This document shows, piece by piece, positions 3,101 through 35,877 of a stretch of DNA of 64,000 bases; position 1 is the first letter of the stretch, and every line of letters begins with the position of its first letter. The DNA lies in NCBI GenBank assembly GCA_944368815.1, contig CALVXD010000001.1, positions 13,093 to 77,092 of the forward strand. Reading direction: 5' to 3'. The DNA comes from an uncultured Bacilli bacterium (GTDB taxonomy: Bacteria; Bacillota_I; Bacilli_A; RF39; UBA660). The notes below the pieces were generated by a model, which saw only the letters and a program-made list of their open reading frames with translations, did no database searches and was not told the DNA's origin. The position numbers and the translations under genes are program-made.

Positions 3101-5882
3101 ATTTATTGCATTTTTTAGCACAATAAATTATTTTCTTTATACATTTTTTTAAGTGCTCTATATTATTTATATCGTGTCCTTTTAACAAATGGGAATAGTT
3201 TTCTATTGGTTGTACTTCAATATAATCATAAAACTCCATTGCCTTCATTAAGTCTTCTTCATTACGAGTTTCTGCTAAATAGAAAATTTCTCCATTAAGA
3301 CAAGCAGAACCTATAAGTAATCCTTCTCTGTTTTCTTCGATTAATTTTCTAGGTATTTTAGCATTTCTTACAATAAAGTTAGTATTTGCATAACTAATTA
3401 TTTTAAATAAATTTTTAAGTCCTACTTTATCTTTTGCTAAAAATGTAACATGCTTAGTATTATCATATAAATTAGCAATATGTTCTGTAATCGTTTTTCC
3501 AGGAATATTCTCATACATTTGTAAATAATTATCATGACACCAAGGATACTTCCATATATATTCCTTATTGTTGTATCCTATAAATGGATATCCCCTTTTT
3601 TCATCCTCTTCTATATTATTCGTACAAGGCTCGACATAATTTTTATAACTGCATAAATCATGTATATTTTCTAGTTTTTTAGGATCATTTTTAAATGAAA
3701 TTTCTTCTAGTAATTTCAAATCATTTAACTCACTAATTTTATTAATTCCTTCAATTTGTTTTAACATTTTAGCAAATATATAACCAGTATTTTCTGAGTC
3801 AACATCCGCACCATGGTGTTGTCCAACATATATTTTAATTTTAATGGTATTAAATTCATCAATATTTACTACTTCTTCATTTTCTGCTGGATGTAATTTT
3901 ATATCTTTTTCTATTACATTATTATCTTTTAAATTAATTATTAAATGACAAGTTTCTGTTTTACTAGCCTTACGAACTTTGTTTAAATAAGTTCCTTCTT
4001 CGGTAGTTTTTAATATAGATTCACCATCTACCTTTATATCTTCTAATTTATTTAGTAAATAATTATCTAATTTTACACTACTACTTGGTACTCCACTTGC
4101 ATTTTCTTCATCTTCTTCATCTGCTTCTCCGGTATTTATTCCGTAAAATTTACCTAACGCTTTTAAACTATGTTTCTTTAAGTCCCTATTTATTACTCTA
4201 GATAACATAAGTGTATCTATGATTGGATTTTCTAACTTACCTAAATCATATTTATAATAGGCCATATCTAACATATTTTTATCAAATCTTGCATTATGTG
4301 CTACTAAAGGTAAAGTACCAATCCATTCTTTAAATCTTTTTACAACATTTTCTTCATTGTCAGAATCTTTTACATCATCATCTGATATATCTGTAACTCT
4401 TGTTATTTCTTCATCAATATGATGACCAGGATTAATTAATTCATCAAAACGATCTACAACTTCTCCATTTTTTAATTTAACTGCACCAAGTTCAATCATT
4501 GAGTCTCCCAAACCTGGATTAAATCCTGTTGTTTCAGTATCGAATATTACGAATGTATTATTTTCGATTAATTCATCATTCGGATTAAAACATACATTTA
4601 AATATGATTCACACATATCTATTTCGCTACCATATGCTACTTTAAAATATTTTAAATTATCTTTTTCTTTTATAGCATTTTCAAGTTCTATATTTAATTC
4701 ATCTAAACCTTCTGTTTTACCTTCATTAGTAAGTGTTTCTATTTTACCTTTAATTTCTTCTATTTTAGCAGTTGTTGCTTTCTTTAATCCTTTATTATAA
4801 CTAGTAACTTCCCCGAAAACATGAGGAAAAGCTTGACAACAATCGTGATCAGTAATAGCGATACCAGGGTGTCCAAATTTAATTGCCTGTTTAACTAATT
4901 TTACTTCATCACATACTCCATCCATTTGACTCATCATTGTATGAGCATGTAATTCCACTCTTTTTTCTTTGGCATCATCTGCTCTTTTATTTTCTTCTTG
5001 TCCATCAATTGCAGTAATATCTTTAAATCTTGTATTGAATACTAATTCTTTTGCAAATTCATCTGTTACTACTTTTCCATAGAATCTATAGTACTTTCCT
5101 TCTTTTAATAAATCTTTAAGTCTTGCAAACTCATCTTCACTTTTAGTAAATATTTTTGCATACATACTATCAGTACCATCAGTAACTTTTAAAGTAAATA
5201 TTTTATATCCACTTTTAGATTCAAATATATCTATTCCAAATAATTTTATTTCAATATTTATATTATCTATTTCATTTTTAATGTCTTTTATTGAAACTAC
5301 ATCTTCACTTTTCTTTTCACGATAATTATTCTTAACTTCTTTTTTTTCTTCAAAAACATAAGTTTCATTTACAACTTTATCTTCTTCAATTTGTTTTAAT
5401 AATTCATCTTCCCCTGTATTATCCATTACTATATTTAATTTATAATAATACCCATATTTTCTAAGTCTATCATTAATTCGTTCTAATTCTTGTAGTAAAT
5501 AAGCTTTTTCTATTTTATTATATACTTTTATTTCAATGTTATCTTCATTAACTATTATTTCTCTATCCTTAAATATATTATATTTGCTACTACTTTTAAT
5601 TAAACTATCAATAATTAAATTAAAATATTCATTAAGATACTCGTTATCTTTATTTTTACTAATAATAGTTAAATCTATTTTGTCAACATTAAATGATTCT
5701 GATAATTTATTATTTAAATAAGTATATACATAACTAGGTATATTATTATCTACTATAATAACAAATTCCCATAATTTAGTTTTATCATATACTATTATTT
5801 TTTCTAATTCGCTGTTATCAAAATATTCCATATATTTATCTAAATTTATTTGTTTAAATAATTTTTCTAATTTACTACTCAT
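195..5882 (-). CDS. polC: DNA polymerase III PolC (Gram-positive type), unusually long at 1895 aa
   Basis: PHP motif VELHAHTMMSQMDG; DEDD exonuclease FVIFDTETTGFNP..VAHNARFDKNML; polymerase core GYLVGSRGSVGSS, CPNCG/CPKC zinc motif, KVPDIDLNFSG; C-terminal NQLSLF as in B. subtilis PolC. Promoter-like TGaTTATAAT and a GGTGG RBS lie upstream. Confidence 0.92.
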   Translation of the reverse strand: MSSKLEKLFKQINLDKYMEYFDNSELEKIIVYDKTKLWEFVIIVDNNIPSYVYTYLNNKLSESFNVDKIDLTIISKNKDNEYLNEYFNLIIDSLIKSSSKYNIFKDREIIVNEDNIEIKVYNKIEKAYLLQELERINDRLRKYGYYYKLNIVMDNTGEDELLKQIEEDKVVNETYVFEEKKEVKNNYREKKSEDVVSIKDIKNEIDNINIEIKLFGIDIFESKSGYKIFTLKVTDGTDSMYAKIFTKSEDEFARLKDLLKEGKYYRFYGKVVTDEFAKELVFNTRFKDITAIDGQEENKRADDAKEKRVELHAHTMMSQMDGVCDEVKLVKQAIKFGHPGIAITDHDCCQAFPHVFGEVTSYNKGLKKATTAKIEEIKGKIETLTNEGKTEGLDELNIELENAIKEKDNLKYFKVAYGSEIDMCESYLNVCFNPNDELIENNTFVIFDTETTGFNPGLGDSMIELGAVKLKNGEVVDRFDELINPGHHIDEEITRVTDISDDDVKDSDNEENVVKRFKEWIGTLPLVAHNARFDKNMLDMAYYKYDLGKLENPIIDTLMLSRVINRDLKKHSLKALGKFYGINTGEADEEDEENASGVPSSSVKLDNYLLNKLEDIKVDGESILKTTEEGTYLNKVRKASKTETCHLIINLKDNNVIEKDIKLHPAENEEVVNIDEFNTIKIKIYVGQHHGADVDSENTGYIFAKMLKQIEGINKISELNDLKLLEEISFKNDPKKLENIHDLCSYKNYVEPCTNNIEEDEKRGYPFIGYNNKEYIWKYPWCHDNYLQMYENIPGKTITEHIANLYDNTKHVTFLAKDKVGLKNLFKIISYANTNFIVRNAKIPRKLIEENREGLLIGSACLNGEIFYLAETRNEEDLMKAMEFYDYIEVQPIENYSHLLKGHDINNIEHLKKCIKKIIYCAKKCNKLIVATGDVHNINKEDVLYREIIVNQNVPGKGRHPLARYLSGNLKGNVNNENIENLIEYVKTKGVELTSIDVKVLKYIYTLTNVKDIPITLMNLVELYQIDKNNKEEEILKSKEEYKKSKIEDALRKFQSLNIIELRTKDEKIVYSLVDDFRYYEPTKLSVSGHIPNQFLRTTNEMKEEFSWLEDEDLINEIVVVNPNKILDMISEIEVVEYPDKPYSPIIEHSQETCRDLVYTKAHSMYGNPLPRMIEERIAQEFYGDTILGLVKDKINLDYPDLDENKKDKMLPSVLHDVIMSGYDGVVNLVKEKMQREDNTLTDEVAIEKAKASLGGIIGGGFDVIYLIAQKLVKHSNDDGYLVGSRGSVGSSLVANMMGITECNGLPAHYYCPNCGYSIFNDEKGNPLSKNYASGFDLPERMCPKCESKMVHEGNDMPFATFLGFNADKVPDIDLNFSGDNQASAHEYTKVLFGTDNVYRAGTIGTVADKTAYGYVLGFYEEQAHNVLKIEANSYGLSVPSKDDLKKKKLLKVSARVAEVERVSVGCTGVKRTTGQHPGGIVVVPGYKDVWDFTPFQYPADDPTSVWRTTHFDYHAIDADLLKLDILGHDDPTVLRKLQDLSGIDVTKIDLGDRDTMKIFCGPEVLGVEKDRLRGLTDKNGRKYCPTGTLGIPEFGTSFLLGMLEETKPTTFAELIKISGLSHGTDVWLGNARDLCTPDENGEIKVPFKNVIGCRDDIMVNLIAWGMKPAKAFKIMEFVRKGKASKDPATWEGHVETMREAGIPEWYIESCRKIKYMFPKAHATAYVTSAFRIAWFKVHHPIYYYAAYFSIRCDQFDPSSMILGENGIRNKIDEIEEKISNKTASKKEIDTCGVLYLCLEMCARGFYFKNIDIDKSDAKDFVITEDGKGLYIPFRALDGLGESVAEAIVNEREKSTFISIEDFQKRCRVSQTLIDKMKIMGLFNDMSETNQLSLF

Positions 5883-17714: not shown

Positions 17715-17749
17715 TATTATCCTCATTTCTACAATAATAATCTTATAAG

Positions 17750-18086
17750 CCACGTTCTGTACCTATTAAGGCGACAAACATTTATCTATGACTTTCGTCA
17801 TCCATCCCACAGATTCATTTCTCCTAGGATAGTTCCCCTACCAAAATTTGGGTTTCTCGCTTATGGGGTTTACCGCGTTTCACCTACTTATTTCTAAGTA
17901 ATTCGTCACTGTGGCACTTTATATTCATAAACCTTAGTTTCCCTTAGGTCTTAGAATGCCGTGAGTATAAACTCCCTTAGGTTATTTTTTCCCTAAGCAT
18001 AAACACTACTATCATCTCAGATAGTGCGAGCGTGGACTTTCCTCTACATATCTCTATGCAGCGTTTGTCCAGATATTATTGTTCTT
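17750..18086 (-). ncRNA. rnpB: RNase P RNA, bacterial type B (rnpB)
   Basis: On the minus strand: GUAGAGGAAAGUCCACGCUCGCAC (B. subtilis GUAGAGGAAAGUCCAUGCUCGCAC), CGCGGUAAACCCC, GAAACCCAAAUUUUGG, and the 3' region ACAGAACGUGGCUUAU (P4 3' strand). P1 pairs GAACAAUAAUAUCU with AGAUUAUUAUUGU. GC content is higher than the flanks. Sits directly downstream of gpsB as in B. subtilis. Ends approximate. Confidence 0.85.
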
Positions 18087-30179: not shown

Positions 30180-30941
30180 AAGTATTCAGAGCAAAAGTCA
30201 AAATAAATTTTGACTAACTTACCTCATGGTAAGTTTTTTCTACTTCTTAGGAATATACATTCCTCCATAGACCAGGATCGGATAGTGCTACCCTACTTAT
30301 ATTAAATCGTCAAAATTTATGGTGTCATTAGTTCTTTTTCGTAAGTTTTAATATATATATTTAATCCTTCTAACATAATATTTATTCACTTCTTTTTTGA
30401 TAACAGCACTTTTTATCGTCCCATTAAATGTATTTTTATTTCTATATCCTCTTATTGGTACTTCTTTTAGTTTCGGTAAAGTTATTGTTTTGTTTTTTAA
30501 ATCTAATTTTATACTATTATAATATTTACCTTTATAAGTACTCTTTATATTATTAGTTTTATAACTATTATGAATTCCCCTTATTTTAAATTTAGGATAT
30601 CCTCCTAAATTTTTATAATATCTTTTATAAGCATCTTCTAAATTAAATACACTATTTCTAAGAGCACAACTATCTGCTTCTTTTAAAAAAGTTTTTTCTT
30701 TTGAAAGTTCTGAAATTAACTTTATTCCACTATATGCATTACTAATTTTTTTATCTAAAAAATAGTTATAAATGAATCTACAACTATCTATTGTTTTATT
30801 TATTAATTTTTCTTTGCATTTATTTGGGTACATTCTAAATTTATAAGACTTATATATTTTCATGTTACAACCACCACCCGTAATTGCATTATAAAATATA
30901 AACATTTGTTTGTTAATATTTTTTTGTAAGCAAAAAAACAT
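30180..30941 (-). mobile_element. Decayed IS200/IS605-family element (tnpB-only remnant plus right-end relic)
   Basis: Truncated tnpB ORF plus perfect palindromes GTCAAAAT-AA-ATTTTGAC (30197-30214) and AACTTACC-TCAT-GGTAAGTT (30215-30234) and a GC-enriched patch (30240-30300). Confidence 0.45.
30348..30863 (-). pseudogene. tnpB: Truncated TnpB (IS605 OrfB) N-terminal fragment
   Basis: MKIYKSYKFRMYPNKCKEKLINKTIDSCRFIYNYFLDKK matches the conserved TnpB N-terminus (KAYKFRLYPT..Q...LN.TFG.CRFVYN). Only about 171 aa, versus about 400 aa for intact TnpB; ends before RuvC-I. Confidence 0.6.
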
Positions 30942-32141: not shown

Positions 32142-33194
32142 TTATTTATAATCTTTTATAGATTTTTCATATTTTTCTTTCATTACAGTATCAGAAAATT
32201 CTAATCCTGCTTCTTCTCTCATTTTTATTAATGTTTTATTATATAAATTTTTATCACTAGCATCTAGTTCATCACATAATTCTTCAATAATTGAATCTCT
32301 TACATCATCCAAACTTGGTTTTTCTTTTTGATCTGTACGATAAATTACGTGATATCCATAACTTGTCTTAACAGGTTCCTTAGTATAACTATTTTCATCC
32401 AATTTTTCTAATGCTTCTAAGAAAGAAGATTCTAAATTAGCATTAAACGCTACATATTTTAAGTTTTCATAAGTTACTGAATCTTTATATTCTTCTTTAA
32501 CTTCATCAAAACTTTTTCCCTCATTTAATTTACCAATAATTTCTTCTGCTAATGCTTTTGCATCTTCATCGCTCATATCATCATTTACACTTACTAATAA
32601 ATGCTGAGTATTGATATCTCCATAAACTTCTTCATCATAATATTTTTGAATTTGTTCATCTGTAATTTGACTCTTTAAATACTCCTCATAATAAAGTTTT
32701 CTTCTATAATCTAACTTTAACATATCTAAGAATTGATCTTTACTATCAAATCCATTTTGAGCTAAAAAAGTAGCTTCATCCATTCCATAATATTGTTCAT
32801 ACATATCAAAATAACTTTGTGCAGTTTTTTCTACTTCTTCTTTCATTTCGTCATTTTCTTCGTATTTTTCATCTAAAATTGCTTTATCAATATACTCAAT
32901 CAAATAAGATATGTTGTAATCTTTCTTCATTTCTTCATATAAGAAATCTGCTGTTATTGTTTCTTCATTAACTTTTAAAATTGGTTGTGTTCCATCAGAA
33001 AGTGTAGCAATTCTATCTGGCCATATAATTACAGTTATTAAAGCTACTAAAAGAGCACCTCCTATAAAAGAGAAAATTAAATTTCTATTTTCATCTATTT
33101 TTTCTAATCCCTTTTTTAACTTATCATTATTTTTTTTGATTTTTTCTCCTTTTTTCTTCTTGTTATCAGAAACTTCATGTTTGTTCTTTTCCAT
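32142..33194 (-). CDS. prsA: PrsA-like foldase (PpiC-type peptidyl-prolyl isomerase), membrane anchored
   Basis: K-rich N-terminus with a TM helix; parvulin motif SYGYHVIYRTD near the C-terminus. Confidence 0.7.
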   Translation of the reverse strand: MEKNKHEVSDNKKKKGEKIKKNNDKLKKGLEKIDENRNLIFSFIGGALLVALITVIIWPDRIATLSDGTQPILKVNEETITADFLYEEMKKDYNISYLIEYIDKAILDEKYEENDEMKEEVEKTAQSYFDMYEQYYGMDEATFLAQNGFDSKDQFLDMLKLDYRRKLYYEEYLKSQITDEQIQKYYDEEVYGDINTQHLLVSVNDDMSDEDAKALAEEIIGKLNEGKSFDEVKEEYKDSVTYENLKYVAFNANLESSFLEALEKLDENSYTKEPVKTSYGYHVIYRTDQKEKPSLDDVRDSIIEELCDELDASDKNLYNKTLIKMREEAGLEFSDTVMKEKYEKSIKDYK

Positions 33195-33384
33195 TTTTCT
33201 AACATCCTTTCTTTAATACAATTATTATAATAACAAAAATAAAAAAAAAATACAACACTTTTGTTTAATATATTGTAAATTCCACAATTTCCCATATTTA
33301 TATTAATATATTTTGAAAATTATTCACACTTTTTGCAATTTTCCCATACAATAATGTGAAAAGACAAAAAAGGAGGAATGAATT

Positions 33385-33465
33385 ATGGGAAATCACGGAT
33401 CATCAGCAGCTATTGTTTTAGTTCTATTTATTTTATTAATAATTGTCCTTGGAGCATGGATATAA
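33385..33465 (+). CDS. YjcZ-like small hydrophobic peptide (26 aa), absent from the ORF track
   Basis: Strong RBS AAAGGAGGAATGAATT-ATG; MGNHGSSAAIVLVLFILLIIVLGAWI resembles sporulation protein YjcZ family cores (G-rich N-terminus plus FALIVVLFILLIIVG). Confidence 0.45.
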   Translation: MGNHGSSAAIVLVLFILLIIVLGAWI

Positions 33466-33492
33466 TCCCAATTAGAATAGGAGGTGTTTAAT

Positions 33493-33606
33493 ATGTCTAA
33501 TAATTGTTCAACTAATTCTTGTGGTTGCAATAGTGGAAATGGATTCTTAATCATAATTGTATTATACATTTTACTTGCAATCATCTTAGGTTCTTGCTTA
33601 TTTTAA
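33493..33606 (+). CDS. Second small Cys/Asn-rich hydrophobic peptide (37 aa), paralogous in architecture
   Basis: RBS AGGAGGTG 8 nt upstream; MSNNCSTNSCGCNSGNGFLIIIVLYILLAIILGSCLF; followed by a perfect hairpin terminator. Confidence 0.4.
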   Translation: MSNNCSTNSCGCNSGNGFLIIIVLYILLAIILGSCLF

Positions 33607-33845
33607 AAACTATCTATAAGATAGTTTTTCAGGCCGTTGACAAAGTCGATTTTTCAAATCGGCTTTGTCAATCGGCTTTTTATATTCCCCACTTTAATAT
33701 AAAAAAAGAACAATTTTAGGAAATTATCATCTAAAATTATTTGATTTTTAAAGTTTTACTCCCACTTTTGAAAATTCAATTTTTAGATTTTTTCAAAAAA
33801 GGTAGTTTGTCAACAGTCTGAAAAACTATCTATAAGATAGTTTTT
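33605..33845. repeat. About 240-bp element bounded by 41-bp imperfect terminal inverted repeats, each embedding a 25-bp palindromic terminator
   Basis: Left end aaaaactatctataagatagtttttcagGCCgttgacaaaG; reverse complement of right end aaaaactatcttatagatagtttttcagACTgttgacaaaC. Internal 16-bp stem (TTGACAAAGTCGATTT/AAATCGGCTTTGTCAA, one G-U) at 33637-33671. Confidence 0.45.
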
Positions 33846-33846
33846 T

Positions 33847-34470
33847 TCATTTTACTTTATTTAGTAGTTTTGTTAAATCATATAATTTACTAAGTTTACT
33901 ATTCCATTTATTATTTATTTCACTTAATAATATTTCTTTTATATTATTTTTATCCTCTTCTTTTTCAAAATAATCATAATAAATATATTTAAGTGTCAAT
34001 TCATCATCTAAGGAACTTATATAGTCTTTTATAAACTTTTGTTTTTCTTTTACAATTCTACTAATATTATCACTTTTTTGTTTTTCATTTTTAATAAATT
34101 CTATTTTTACCTCTTTTATATTTTCACTTTCATCAATTACTTCCTCTTCTTCATCAAATAACATACTACTTCTTTTTATTAAATATCCATTATTATTAAA
34201 CATTACCCCAAATGCTGACATCCCATTTGTTACTAAACATATTATATTTCCTTCTATTTTTTCGTTGTATAATGAAAAATTCTTTTTTAAGGAATCAATA
34301 GTTTCCATAGATACTTGTACTTTATTATTTCTAAGAGATACATATGTATTTTCATCTACTTTTAAGACTGGTATTTTTCTTACATTAATTACATTATCAT
34401 TGTTTTTCCACTCGTAAAAATCATAAAATTCTTCATTAAAATTTAAAATAATATCATAAATATAATTCAT
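33847..34470 (-). CDS. Hypothetical protein
   Basis: 207-aa ORF; no recognisable motif. Confidence 0.4.
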   Translation of the reverse strand: MNYIYDIILNFNEEFYDFYEWKNNDNVINVRKIPVLKVDENTYVSLRNNKVQVSMETIDSLKKNFSLYNEKIEGNIICLVTNGMSAFGVMFNNNGYLIKRSSMLFDEEEEVIDESENIKEVKIEFIKNEKQKSDNISRIVKEKQKFIKDYISSLDDELTLKYIYYDYFEKEEDKNNIKEILLSEINNKWNSKLSKLYDLTKLLNKVK

Positions 34471-34675
34471 ATTTTCTATCTCCTTTATTTATTAATGTTA
34501 ACACTATAATTATTATACCTATTATAACTAAATATAATAAATTACTCTTAATTATAAAGTTTACATATTCATAAAAATTATACCCAATTGTAAGTAAATT
34601 TAAATATAAAATTATATTAGAAACACCAATAACAACAAACCAGAATCCTATTAAAAACAAAAAAATATGTGCCAT
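34454..34675 (-). CDS. Small membrane protein
   Basis: 73 aa with two TM helices; slight overlap with the downstream gene. Confidence 0.3.
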   Translation of the reverse strand: MAHIFLFLIGFWFVVIGVSNIILYLNLLTIGYNFYEYVNFIIKSNLLYLVIIGIIIIVLTLINKGDRKYELYL

Positions 34676-34724: not shown

Positions 34725-35792
34725 TTATTCTATATAGTCTTTATCTTTTATATCAACACTACTAATTGATTCAAATCTTTTAGATATTTTATCAGTAGTT
34801 ATATGAATATTTTCTACATCTTTATTAACTGTTTCTATACTTCTAGATAATTTATCCCATCTTTCTTTATATCTTGAGAATTCTAATCCAAGTTTATTTA
34901 ATTCTTCGTGAATAATTGATGTATATTTATCTCTTTCCATATTTTTAAGAAGTACTTGAATTACAGTTAATGTTGACATTAAAGTAGTGGGAGAAGTAAT
35001 CCATACTCTTTTTTTATTTGCGTAACTGGTTATATCCATATGATATGCATTTATTTCTGCAAAGATTGCTTCTGCTGGTAAAAACATAATTGCTTGGTTA
35101 CTAGTAACTCCTGGAATTATATATTTCATACTAATGGCATCTATATGTTTTTTAACATCAGCTTTAAATTGTTTTTCATAATTTGCTCTTTCTACCGGAG
35201 ATATATTTTTATCAACCATTCTTTGATATGCTTCTAAAGGAAACTTGGAATCTATTGCTATTGTTCCTAAAGGTTCTGGAGCAAATAATACTGCGTCTGC
35301 AATATATTTATTAGGAAAAGTATATTGAAGCTGATATATTCTATCATTTTTTTCTCCAAATATATTAGATAATATATGTTTTAGATTAACTTCTCCAAAA
35401 ATACCTCTACTCTTTTTATCAGTTAAAACACTTTGTAAAGATACTATATCTCCTGATAAAGTTTCTATTTTCTTTTGAGCTTCATCTATCTTTGATAGTC
35501 TTTCCAATACTGACGTAAATGTTTTATTAGTCTTAGTAAAGTTTTCATCTAATCTTTCATTTACCTTATCATTTATCATGGTTAATTTATTTTCTATTTT
35601 TTCATTTAATTTTTCAAAATCATTATTCATATTTTGCATCAAAGACATTCTAAATTCTGATAATTCTTTTATTGTAGTAGTTTCTAACTTACCTAATCTT
35701 TCAGTAATGTTAGATTCATTTACATTTTTTATTATTGATATTATTACTAAAACTATAATTATAACTATTCCAATTATTATTATATAATCCAT
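34725..35792 (-). CDS. rmuC: DNA recombination protein RmuC
   Basis: N-terminal TM, long coiled coil, and the RmuC C-terminal region (KRVWITSPTTLMSTLTVIQVLLKNMERDK). Confidence 0.8.
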   Translation of the reverse strand: MDYIIIIGIVIIIVLVIISIIKNVNESNITERLGKLETTTIKELSEFRMSLMQNMNNDFEKLNEKIENKLTMINDKVNERLDENFTKTNKTFTSVLERLSKIDEAQKKIETLSGDIVSLQSVLTDKKSRGIFGEVNLKHILSNIFGEKNDRIYQLQYTFPNKYIADAVLFAPEPLGTIAIDSKFPLEAYQRMVDKNISPVERANYEKQFKADVKKHIDAISMKYIIPGVTSNQAIMFLPAEAIFAEINAYHMDITSYANKKRVWITSPTTLMSTLTVIQVLLKNMERDKYTSIIHEELNKLGLEFSRYKERWDKLSRSIETVNKDVENIHITTDKISKRFESISSVDIKDKDYIE

Positions 35793-35877
35793 AAATTCAC
35801 TTCCTATTTCTTATGTAATTATATAATATTTAAAGTATTTTAGTCAATAGAAAAGAATAATTTTACAAACATTTGTT

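Follow-up and report, generated by a model that had tools for sequence, protein, structure and literature searches.

The structure analysed here lies between two convergent genes in a 64-kb stretch of DNA (hereafter referred to as the window). On its left side, two genes for tiny membrane peptides, both with strong RBSs, are arranged in tandem on the plus strand (33385–33465 and 33493–33606). Their products of 26 and 37 aa showed scores of 27.3 and 21.0 bits, respectively, against TIGR01732 ('YjcZ family sporulation protein'; cutoff, 21.35 bits), and the 37-aa peptide, which is YjcZ-like with a score under the cutoff, carries a Cys/Asn-rich extension at its N-terminus. On the right side, a gene for a 207-aa product with no family match is located on the minus strand (33847–34470). 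The stop codons of the 37-aa and 207-aa ORFs (33604–33606 and 33847–33849, respectively) face the repeat structure from both sides, and its placement between convergent genes in the original prediction is thus borne out. Elsewhere in the window, a class B RNase P RNA was identified on the minus strand at 17741–18076 (RF00011, 287 bits), which fits a host of the Bacilli/Mollicutes type with a local GC content of approximately 16–30%.

A 25-nt palindrome (AAAAACTATCTATAAGATAGTTTTT) occurs exactly twice, at 33605–33629 and 33821–33845, with 0 occurrences expected from 100 dinucleotide shuffles. The two copies, which had been located correctly from the start, form an exact direct repeat (25/25 nt). 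The palindrome consists of an 11-bp stem and a 3-nt loop with A5/T5 arms, and folds foot to foot with −8.4 kcal/mol. The left copy overlaps by 2 nt with the stop codon of the upstream plus-strand gene, and the right copy is 1 nt away from the stop codon of the 207-aa gene. Because the stem is AT-rich, with only two G-C pairs within an A5/T5 frame, the palindrome was not called in the terminator scan. We infer that this hairpin is a putative terminator common to the 37-aa and 207-aa genes. In the original prediction, each palindrome copy and its inward extension were regarded as a 41-bp TIR with 37 of the 41 positions matched. The inverted match is present, but the figure is 35/41, because the ATA loop of the palindrome is not self-complementary; three of the mismatches in the 41-nt alignment are in this loop and three in the inner 16 nt. 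Moreover, the '41-bp TIR' is composite: its outer 25 nt represent a target-site duplication (TSD) of palindromic sequence, and its inner ∼16 nt (up to ∼25) belong to the element itself. As the target is palindromic, its duplication mimics an extension of the TIR.

Between the two palindrome copies lies a non-coding element of 191 bp (33630–33820, plus strand). It is bounded by IRL CAGGCCGTTGACAAAG (33630–33645, plus strand) and IRR CAGACTGTTGACAAAC (33805–33820, minus strand). IRL and the inverted IRR match at 13 of 16 positions, or at 19 of 25 when extended inward, and these terminal inverted repeats account for the inward extensions that had been predicted. At the left end, IRL is paired with an adjacent internal inverted copy to form a hairpin that is followed by TTTTT (33633–33681, plus strand). 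Its core stem (33637–33671) consists of 16 pairs between 33637–33652 and 33656–33671, one of which is G-T, in agreement with the 16-bp hairpin with one G-U pair described previously. This hairpin is the sole terminator-like site called within 33000–34600 and, together with its T run, looks like a candidate intrinsic terminator directed into the element. Two CCCACTTT boxes on the plus strand (33688–33695 and 33761–33768) represent the direct repeat that had also been recognized. The CCCAC core of the first box is kept in most subfamilies of the element, and the second box corresponds to the near-invariant columns C133, C134, A135, C136, T137, T138, and T139. A central imperfect palindrome with 20-nt arms (80%) occupies 33700–33750 on the plus strand, between an A run and a T run. 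The sole ORF in the element is a 41-aa TTG-start ORF that enters from outside. Neither a conserved small ORF (ORF list and alignment inspection) nor a good sigma-70 promoter (scan and alignment inspection) was found inside the 191 bp. At the right edge, TTGTCA in the right IR is followed, after an 18-nt spacer, by TATAAG, which is located in the hairpin loop of the duplication (33807–33836, plus strand). The two might form a hybrid promoter that is directed outward, in antisense orientation to the 207-aa gene; this pair was passed over in the promoter scan because its final base is G.

Three contigs that encode exactly the 207-aa neighbour (L001–L003) were compared with the window. In L001 (a 19-kb ENA contig) and L002 (a Logan contig), a single palindrome copy is present and exactly 216 bp are absent, the missing sequence being the 191-bp interior together with one of the palindrome copies. 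Outside this gap, the aligned stretches of the two contigs are 99.0–100% identical to the window; for L001, the identity is 99.2–99.6% over 10 kb, with the 216-bp gap alone. L003 carries the element, matches the window at 100% identity, and breaks off within the element. L001 and L002 are empty sites of the same species, of the kind that the original prediction had proposed to look for in related strains, and the element is present in L003 and the window and absent from L001 and L002. In the empty state, the palindrome lies within 0–1 nt of both convergent stop codons, a position at which a compact bidirectional terminator would sit.

This polymorphism can also be read in the opposite direction, namely, that the filled state is older and that the 'empty' strains lost the element by recombination or slippage between the 25-bp repeats. 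Recombination of perfect 25-bp repeats restores exactly the sequence of L001 and L002, and no transposase gene was detected in the 64-kb window by tblastn with an IS1182-family transposase. On the other hand, the two TSD copies have remained identical at all positions (25/25), and recent bursts are seen in other genomes, with at least 19 identical 191-bp copies in Firmicutes bacterium M10-2. In addition, L003, which is filled, shows 100% identity to the window, whereas the empty contigs differ by approximately 0.5–1%; from three contigs, this weakly suggests that the filled state is limited to one sublineage. We therefore regard the loss of an older insertion as unlikely; if it is the case, the polymorphism is no sign of recent transposition at this site.

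The distribution of the element was analysed by scanning one genome per bacterial/archaeal species (185,579 species genomes). The end motif CAGRCYGTTGACAAAS has 13 specified bases, and CAGNCNGTTGACAAANTNNNTTTT was used as the end motif in the scan; all counts for the family are lower bounds. At least 117 loci were detected, and the family matches are mostly in gut Bacilli/Erysipelotrichales-like genomes. Most of the family matches listed are in gut MAGs labelled Bacilli, Mycoplasma/Tenericutes, Coprobacillus, Holdemania, Thomasclavelia, or Traorella, or in the isolate M10-2. Approximately 20 of the 117 matches listed are in GC-rich Proteobacteria, Bacteroidota, and others; these contain no hairpin or partner end and were rejected as chance matches. 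A single match in a viral contig, which is in coding-like sequence without a hairpin or partner end, was also judged to be due to chance. When a complete element was defined by CAG...CTG bounds and a flanking direct repeat, at least 38 complete elements were found in the listed loci plus the window, one of which is 1613 bp long. Among the matches listed, the short elements are 191 bp in 31 cases (including the window copy), 190 bp in three, and 171, 184, and 186 bp in one each. The family thus contains at least 37 complete short elements, 36 of them outside the window, and the unit, whose repetition had been put forward for checking, is dispersed and multi-copy with a different duplicated hairpin at each copy.

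In an nhmmer search with a profile built from 34 copies in other genomes, the window element was detected with an E-value of 1.3e-41 over profile positions 1–191, and the same profile search found no second copy in the 64-kb window. The window copy shows 70–76% identity to other 191-bp subfamilies. Conserved across the subfamilies are the ends, the left-end hairpin, the central palindrome, the two CCCAC boxes, and the overall length. All subfamilies retain the left-end hairpin, in which compensatory changes (AU↔GC and UA↔CG) are seen, and alignment inspection revealed GCCG/CGGC versus GCTG/CAGC between subfamilies. These changes support the view that selection acts on the structure of this hairpin. 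The central palindrome is also included in the consensus structure and shows some covariation.

Several matches deserve separate description. A 190-bp copy in L096 (4332–4521, BRZ_GB__bin6) is located between two different hairpins, ATAGAAGCAAA...TTTGCTTCTAT and AAAGAAAG...CTTTCTTT, and its lack of a duplication points to a second event or to recombination of two copies. In Anaerococcus spp., L112 carries a 171-bp element (3973–4143) with CAGACTGTTGACAAA ends, a duplicated hairpin, and an unrelated interior (…TTTCACCCATTTCGAGCGAACGTAGTGAGTCGAGAAATC…), and the same different type of short element is present in L111, L116, L121, and L064; one end type appears to be the source of at least two MITE lineages. 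Copies of the Firmicutes-type MITE in three MAGs labelled Muribaculaceae (L051, L102, and L095) are on AT-rich contigs binned into Bacteroidota and likely reflect mis-binning or horizontal transfer. Finally, family ends are located approximately 50–75 nt from contig ends in many MAGs (e.g. L019, L029, L035, L038, L040, L057, and L082). Because many matches adjoin contig ends in this way, short-read assemblies of these gut Bacilli are broken systematically by copies of the IS and the MITE.

The empty sites and the dispersal of the family also bear on a different type of explanation, in which the locus is a fixed complex terminator or a host gene for a structured small RNA between the convergent genes. 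The predicted fold is very stable (z = −10.8), the element contains covarying hairpins, and a terminator-like hairpin with a T run is present at its left end. However, the low folding energy is mostly due to self-pairing of the palindromic duplication, the element is absent from conspecific strains that are 99.0–100% identical over the aligned stretches, and it is dispersed over many unrelated loci and genomes. Nothing relevant to the element was found in Rfam, either in the whole window at the gathering threshold or in 33350–33950 at E ≤ 1, where the best matches were hairpin-shaped miRNA models with <20 bits. The alternative raised in the original prediction, a structured RNA locus, is therefore not supported, and a single-copy structure that is conserved in all relatives with no empty site is contradicted by the empty sites and the dispersed copies. 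On these grounds, we consider a host small RNA or complex terminator very improbable.

Among the matches listed, the flanking duplications are mostly 17–30 bp in length, apart from two outliers (10 and 13 bp), and each site has a duplication of its own. In 36 of the 38 complete elements listed, the duplication is a stem-loop from its first to its last base (±2 nt). When family-type ends at contig breaks were included, 81 of the 86 ends listed adjoin a hairpin whose 3' foot is within 3 nt of the junction. The preference of this IS1182-type family for palindromes or hairpins is thus apparent among the matches listed. An ORF of at least 70 aa that ends within approximately 80 nt and faces the hairpin was found for 28 of the 37 short elements listed (76%), compared with 26% of random positions, and 10 of the 37 are located between convergent ORFs, compared with 1.9% (random control, 3,700 positions in the same loci). 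Because the hairpins are duplicated and enriched at the 3' ends of ORFs, the targets of the family, as judged from their sequences, are very probably intrinsic terminators. No clear bias was seen in how the left end with its hairpin is oriented with respect to the incoming gene (11 versus 7).

The same comparison bears on whether the 25-bp repeats might be attL/attR cores of a site-specific integration, with the 191 bp as the decayed remainder of an insert brought in by an integrase. Att cores typically take the form of exact direct repeats of ∼25 bp. However, the 36 other complete MITE copies among the matches listed have the same 16-nt ends and a different duplicated sequence each, an outcome that a site-specific system would not produce, and the enzyme encoded by the full-length relatives described below is a DDE transposase instead of an integrase. 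The variation of the duplicated sequence from copy to copy excludes an att-site remnant, to which we attach almost no probability.

Full-length relatives with the same ends were identified among the matches. The 1613-bp element in L072 (404–2016) is flanked by a 30-bp duplicated hairpin and has ends like those of the window MITE, matching them at 15 of 16 positions in IRL (CAGGCTGTTGACAAAG) and at 16 of 16 positions in IRR. Its 465-aa ORF was assigned to the NCBIfam model NF033551 'IS1182 family transposase' (338.8 bits; cutoff, 270) and also contains Pfam DUF772 and DDE_Tnp_1_6. Other full-length copies of 1.6–1.7 kb with the same ends are present in L108, L049, L077, L037, and L026 among the matches listed, and the M10-2 genome contains, in addition to its MITE copies, an IS1182-like transposase gene that ends in the same IRR (L099). 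The interior of the L072 IS shows no similarity to the MITE. Because the ends alone are common, the MITE is at most a candidate for descent from an L072-type IS by simple internal deletion. In a related species (L063, BRZ_P__bin85; its rmuC region is 75% identical to 34763–35808 of the window), an IS end of the full-length type adjoins a hairpin just 3' of rmuC (4067–4173), and the contig ends there.

A relationship to another transposon group was also considered. An ORF on the minus strand at 30348–30941, 2.7 kb away from the element, carries an HTH_OrfB_IS605 domain (TnpB N-terminal), as annotated with Pfam in L001, where this region is identical. This nearby ORF, together with the subterminal hairpin at the left end of the element, might indicate a palindrome-associated element (PATE) of the IS200/IS605 type that is related to the TnpB-like fragment. 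However, the 191-bp element has TIRs, a TSD, and ends common to IS1182-family DDE elements. To our knowledge, IS200/IS605 elements have neither terminal inverted repeats nor target duplications. The IS200/IS605-type reading is excluded by the combination of TIRs, TSD, and DDE partner, leaving it with a negligible probability, and the ORF is probably a truncated TnpB without relation to the MITE.

Taken together, these findings allow us to conclude with high confidence that the feature is an IS1182-family MITE inserted in a putative bidirectional-terminator hairpin, which has been duplicated, between convergent genes. The original reading of a non-autonomous element that was inserted into, and duplicated, a bidirectional terminator is upheld by the empty sites, the multi-copy family, and the full-length relatives of the IS1182 family. 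The target would have been the 25-bp palindromic putative terminator between the convergent stop codons, and the element would have been mobilized in trans by an IS1182-family DDE transposase that binds GTTGACAAA-containing ends. What the enzyme recognizes may be a structure, namely an extruded hairpin or cruciform, and not a sequence. The element ends would be joined to both hairpin feet by strand transfer at the 5' stem feet, and gap repair of the two single-stranded hairpins would then copy the whole palindrome to both sides, giving the 25-bp TSD. Each flanking gene keeps a complete putative terminator, and therefore the insertion is probably near-neutral for both genes. In the full-length IS, an analogous hairpin and T run at the left end would stop read-through into the transposase gene; the retention of the hairpin in the non-coding derivative suggests that it may have a role in cis in transposition.

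It is possible, although we put this forward tentatively, that the 191-bp family documents structure-directed DDE transposition, in which both strand transfers occur at hairpin or cruciform feet and the length of the TSD is set by the target, together with a need in cis for a hairpinned end or an element-borne RNA. The need in cis is proposed because the covarying left hairpin is strictly conserved and the length is exact at 70–76% identity. If the structure-directed reading is true, the length of the TSD (17–30 bp, a whole terminator) is dictated by the target and not by the enzyme, the host terminator is preserved on both sides, and a pathway that has so far only been drawn as hypothetical for IS1272 would be realized. 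The wider value of the family lies in clean multi-genome evidence for foot-to-foot duplication of hairpins, and its dozens of independent insertions provide a natural data set on how IS1182-family transposases are directed to hairpins. AT-rich gut Bacilli/Erysipelotrichales-like genomes, which have been little studied, contain the family in abundance, and it is also useful as a strain-level marker. In the window genome, an odd intergenic structure is explained as a probably harmless insertion that appears to have been mobile recently.

Hairpin/terminator targeting and IS1182-derived MITEs have already been published, and the element is not a new kind of system. In our literature search, neither the 191-bp family nor systematic duplication of whole hairpins by MITEs was found described, which is not proof of absence. 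In ISfinder, direct repeats of 0–60 bp are given for the IS1182 family. RUP and Correia elements carry short TA duplications and originated from other IS families, and we know of no description of RUP, SPRITE, or Correia elements that duplicate a complete target hairpin. These elements of Firmicutes and Neisseria resemble the 191-bp family in being short (100–200 bp), TIR-bounded, intergenic, and multi-copy, and they can carry terminator-like structures (PMC10969869). The MITEs of Methanosarcina acetivorans, when compared by description, are likewise short non-autonomous elements assigned to an IS1182-family partner (ISMac2); they are 160–169 bp long with 25–26-bp IRs, but their host is archaeal and the duplications listed for them measure 4 or 0 bp and do not comprise whole hairpins (PMC3852290).

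Among full-length elements, insertion in hairpins at gene ends is shared with ISCbo5 and ISbma2-like elements (IS1182 family) of Clostridium botulinum group III and C. novyi. All but one of these insertions are reported to lie within hairpin-forming inverted repeats at gene ends, with hairpins 'surrounding' the element; however, these are full-length autonomous copies, and the report gives neither a MITE derivative nor duplication lengths (PMC3098183). A further parallel is provided by IS1272/TnSha1 of staphylococci, which belong to the same transposase family as the putative parent IS of our MITEs (NF033551). They also insert into hairpins, many of which are confirmed transcription terminators, irrespective of the primary sequence (PMC4923244, PMC5678879), and both of these papers attribute palindrome targeting in the IS1182 family to Siguier et al. 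2015. In contrast to the 191-bp family, in which the whole hairpin (mostly 17–30 bp) is duplicated at every copy, insertion of IS1272/TnSha1 removes the target hairpin partly or completely and generates no duplication (PMC4923244, PMC5678879); the window element further differs in being a 191-bp non-coding derivative. In the model of Wan et al., a 'pathway b' that duplicates the whole stem-loop was drawn beside the observed IS1272 pathway in which the stem-loop is replaced (PMC5678879), and it is the outcome of this 'pathway b' that the 191-bp family displays.
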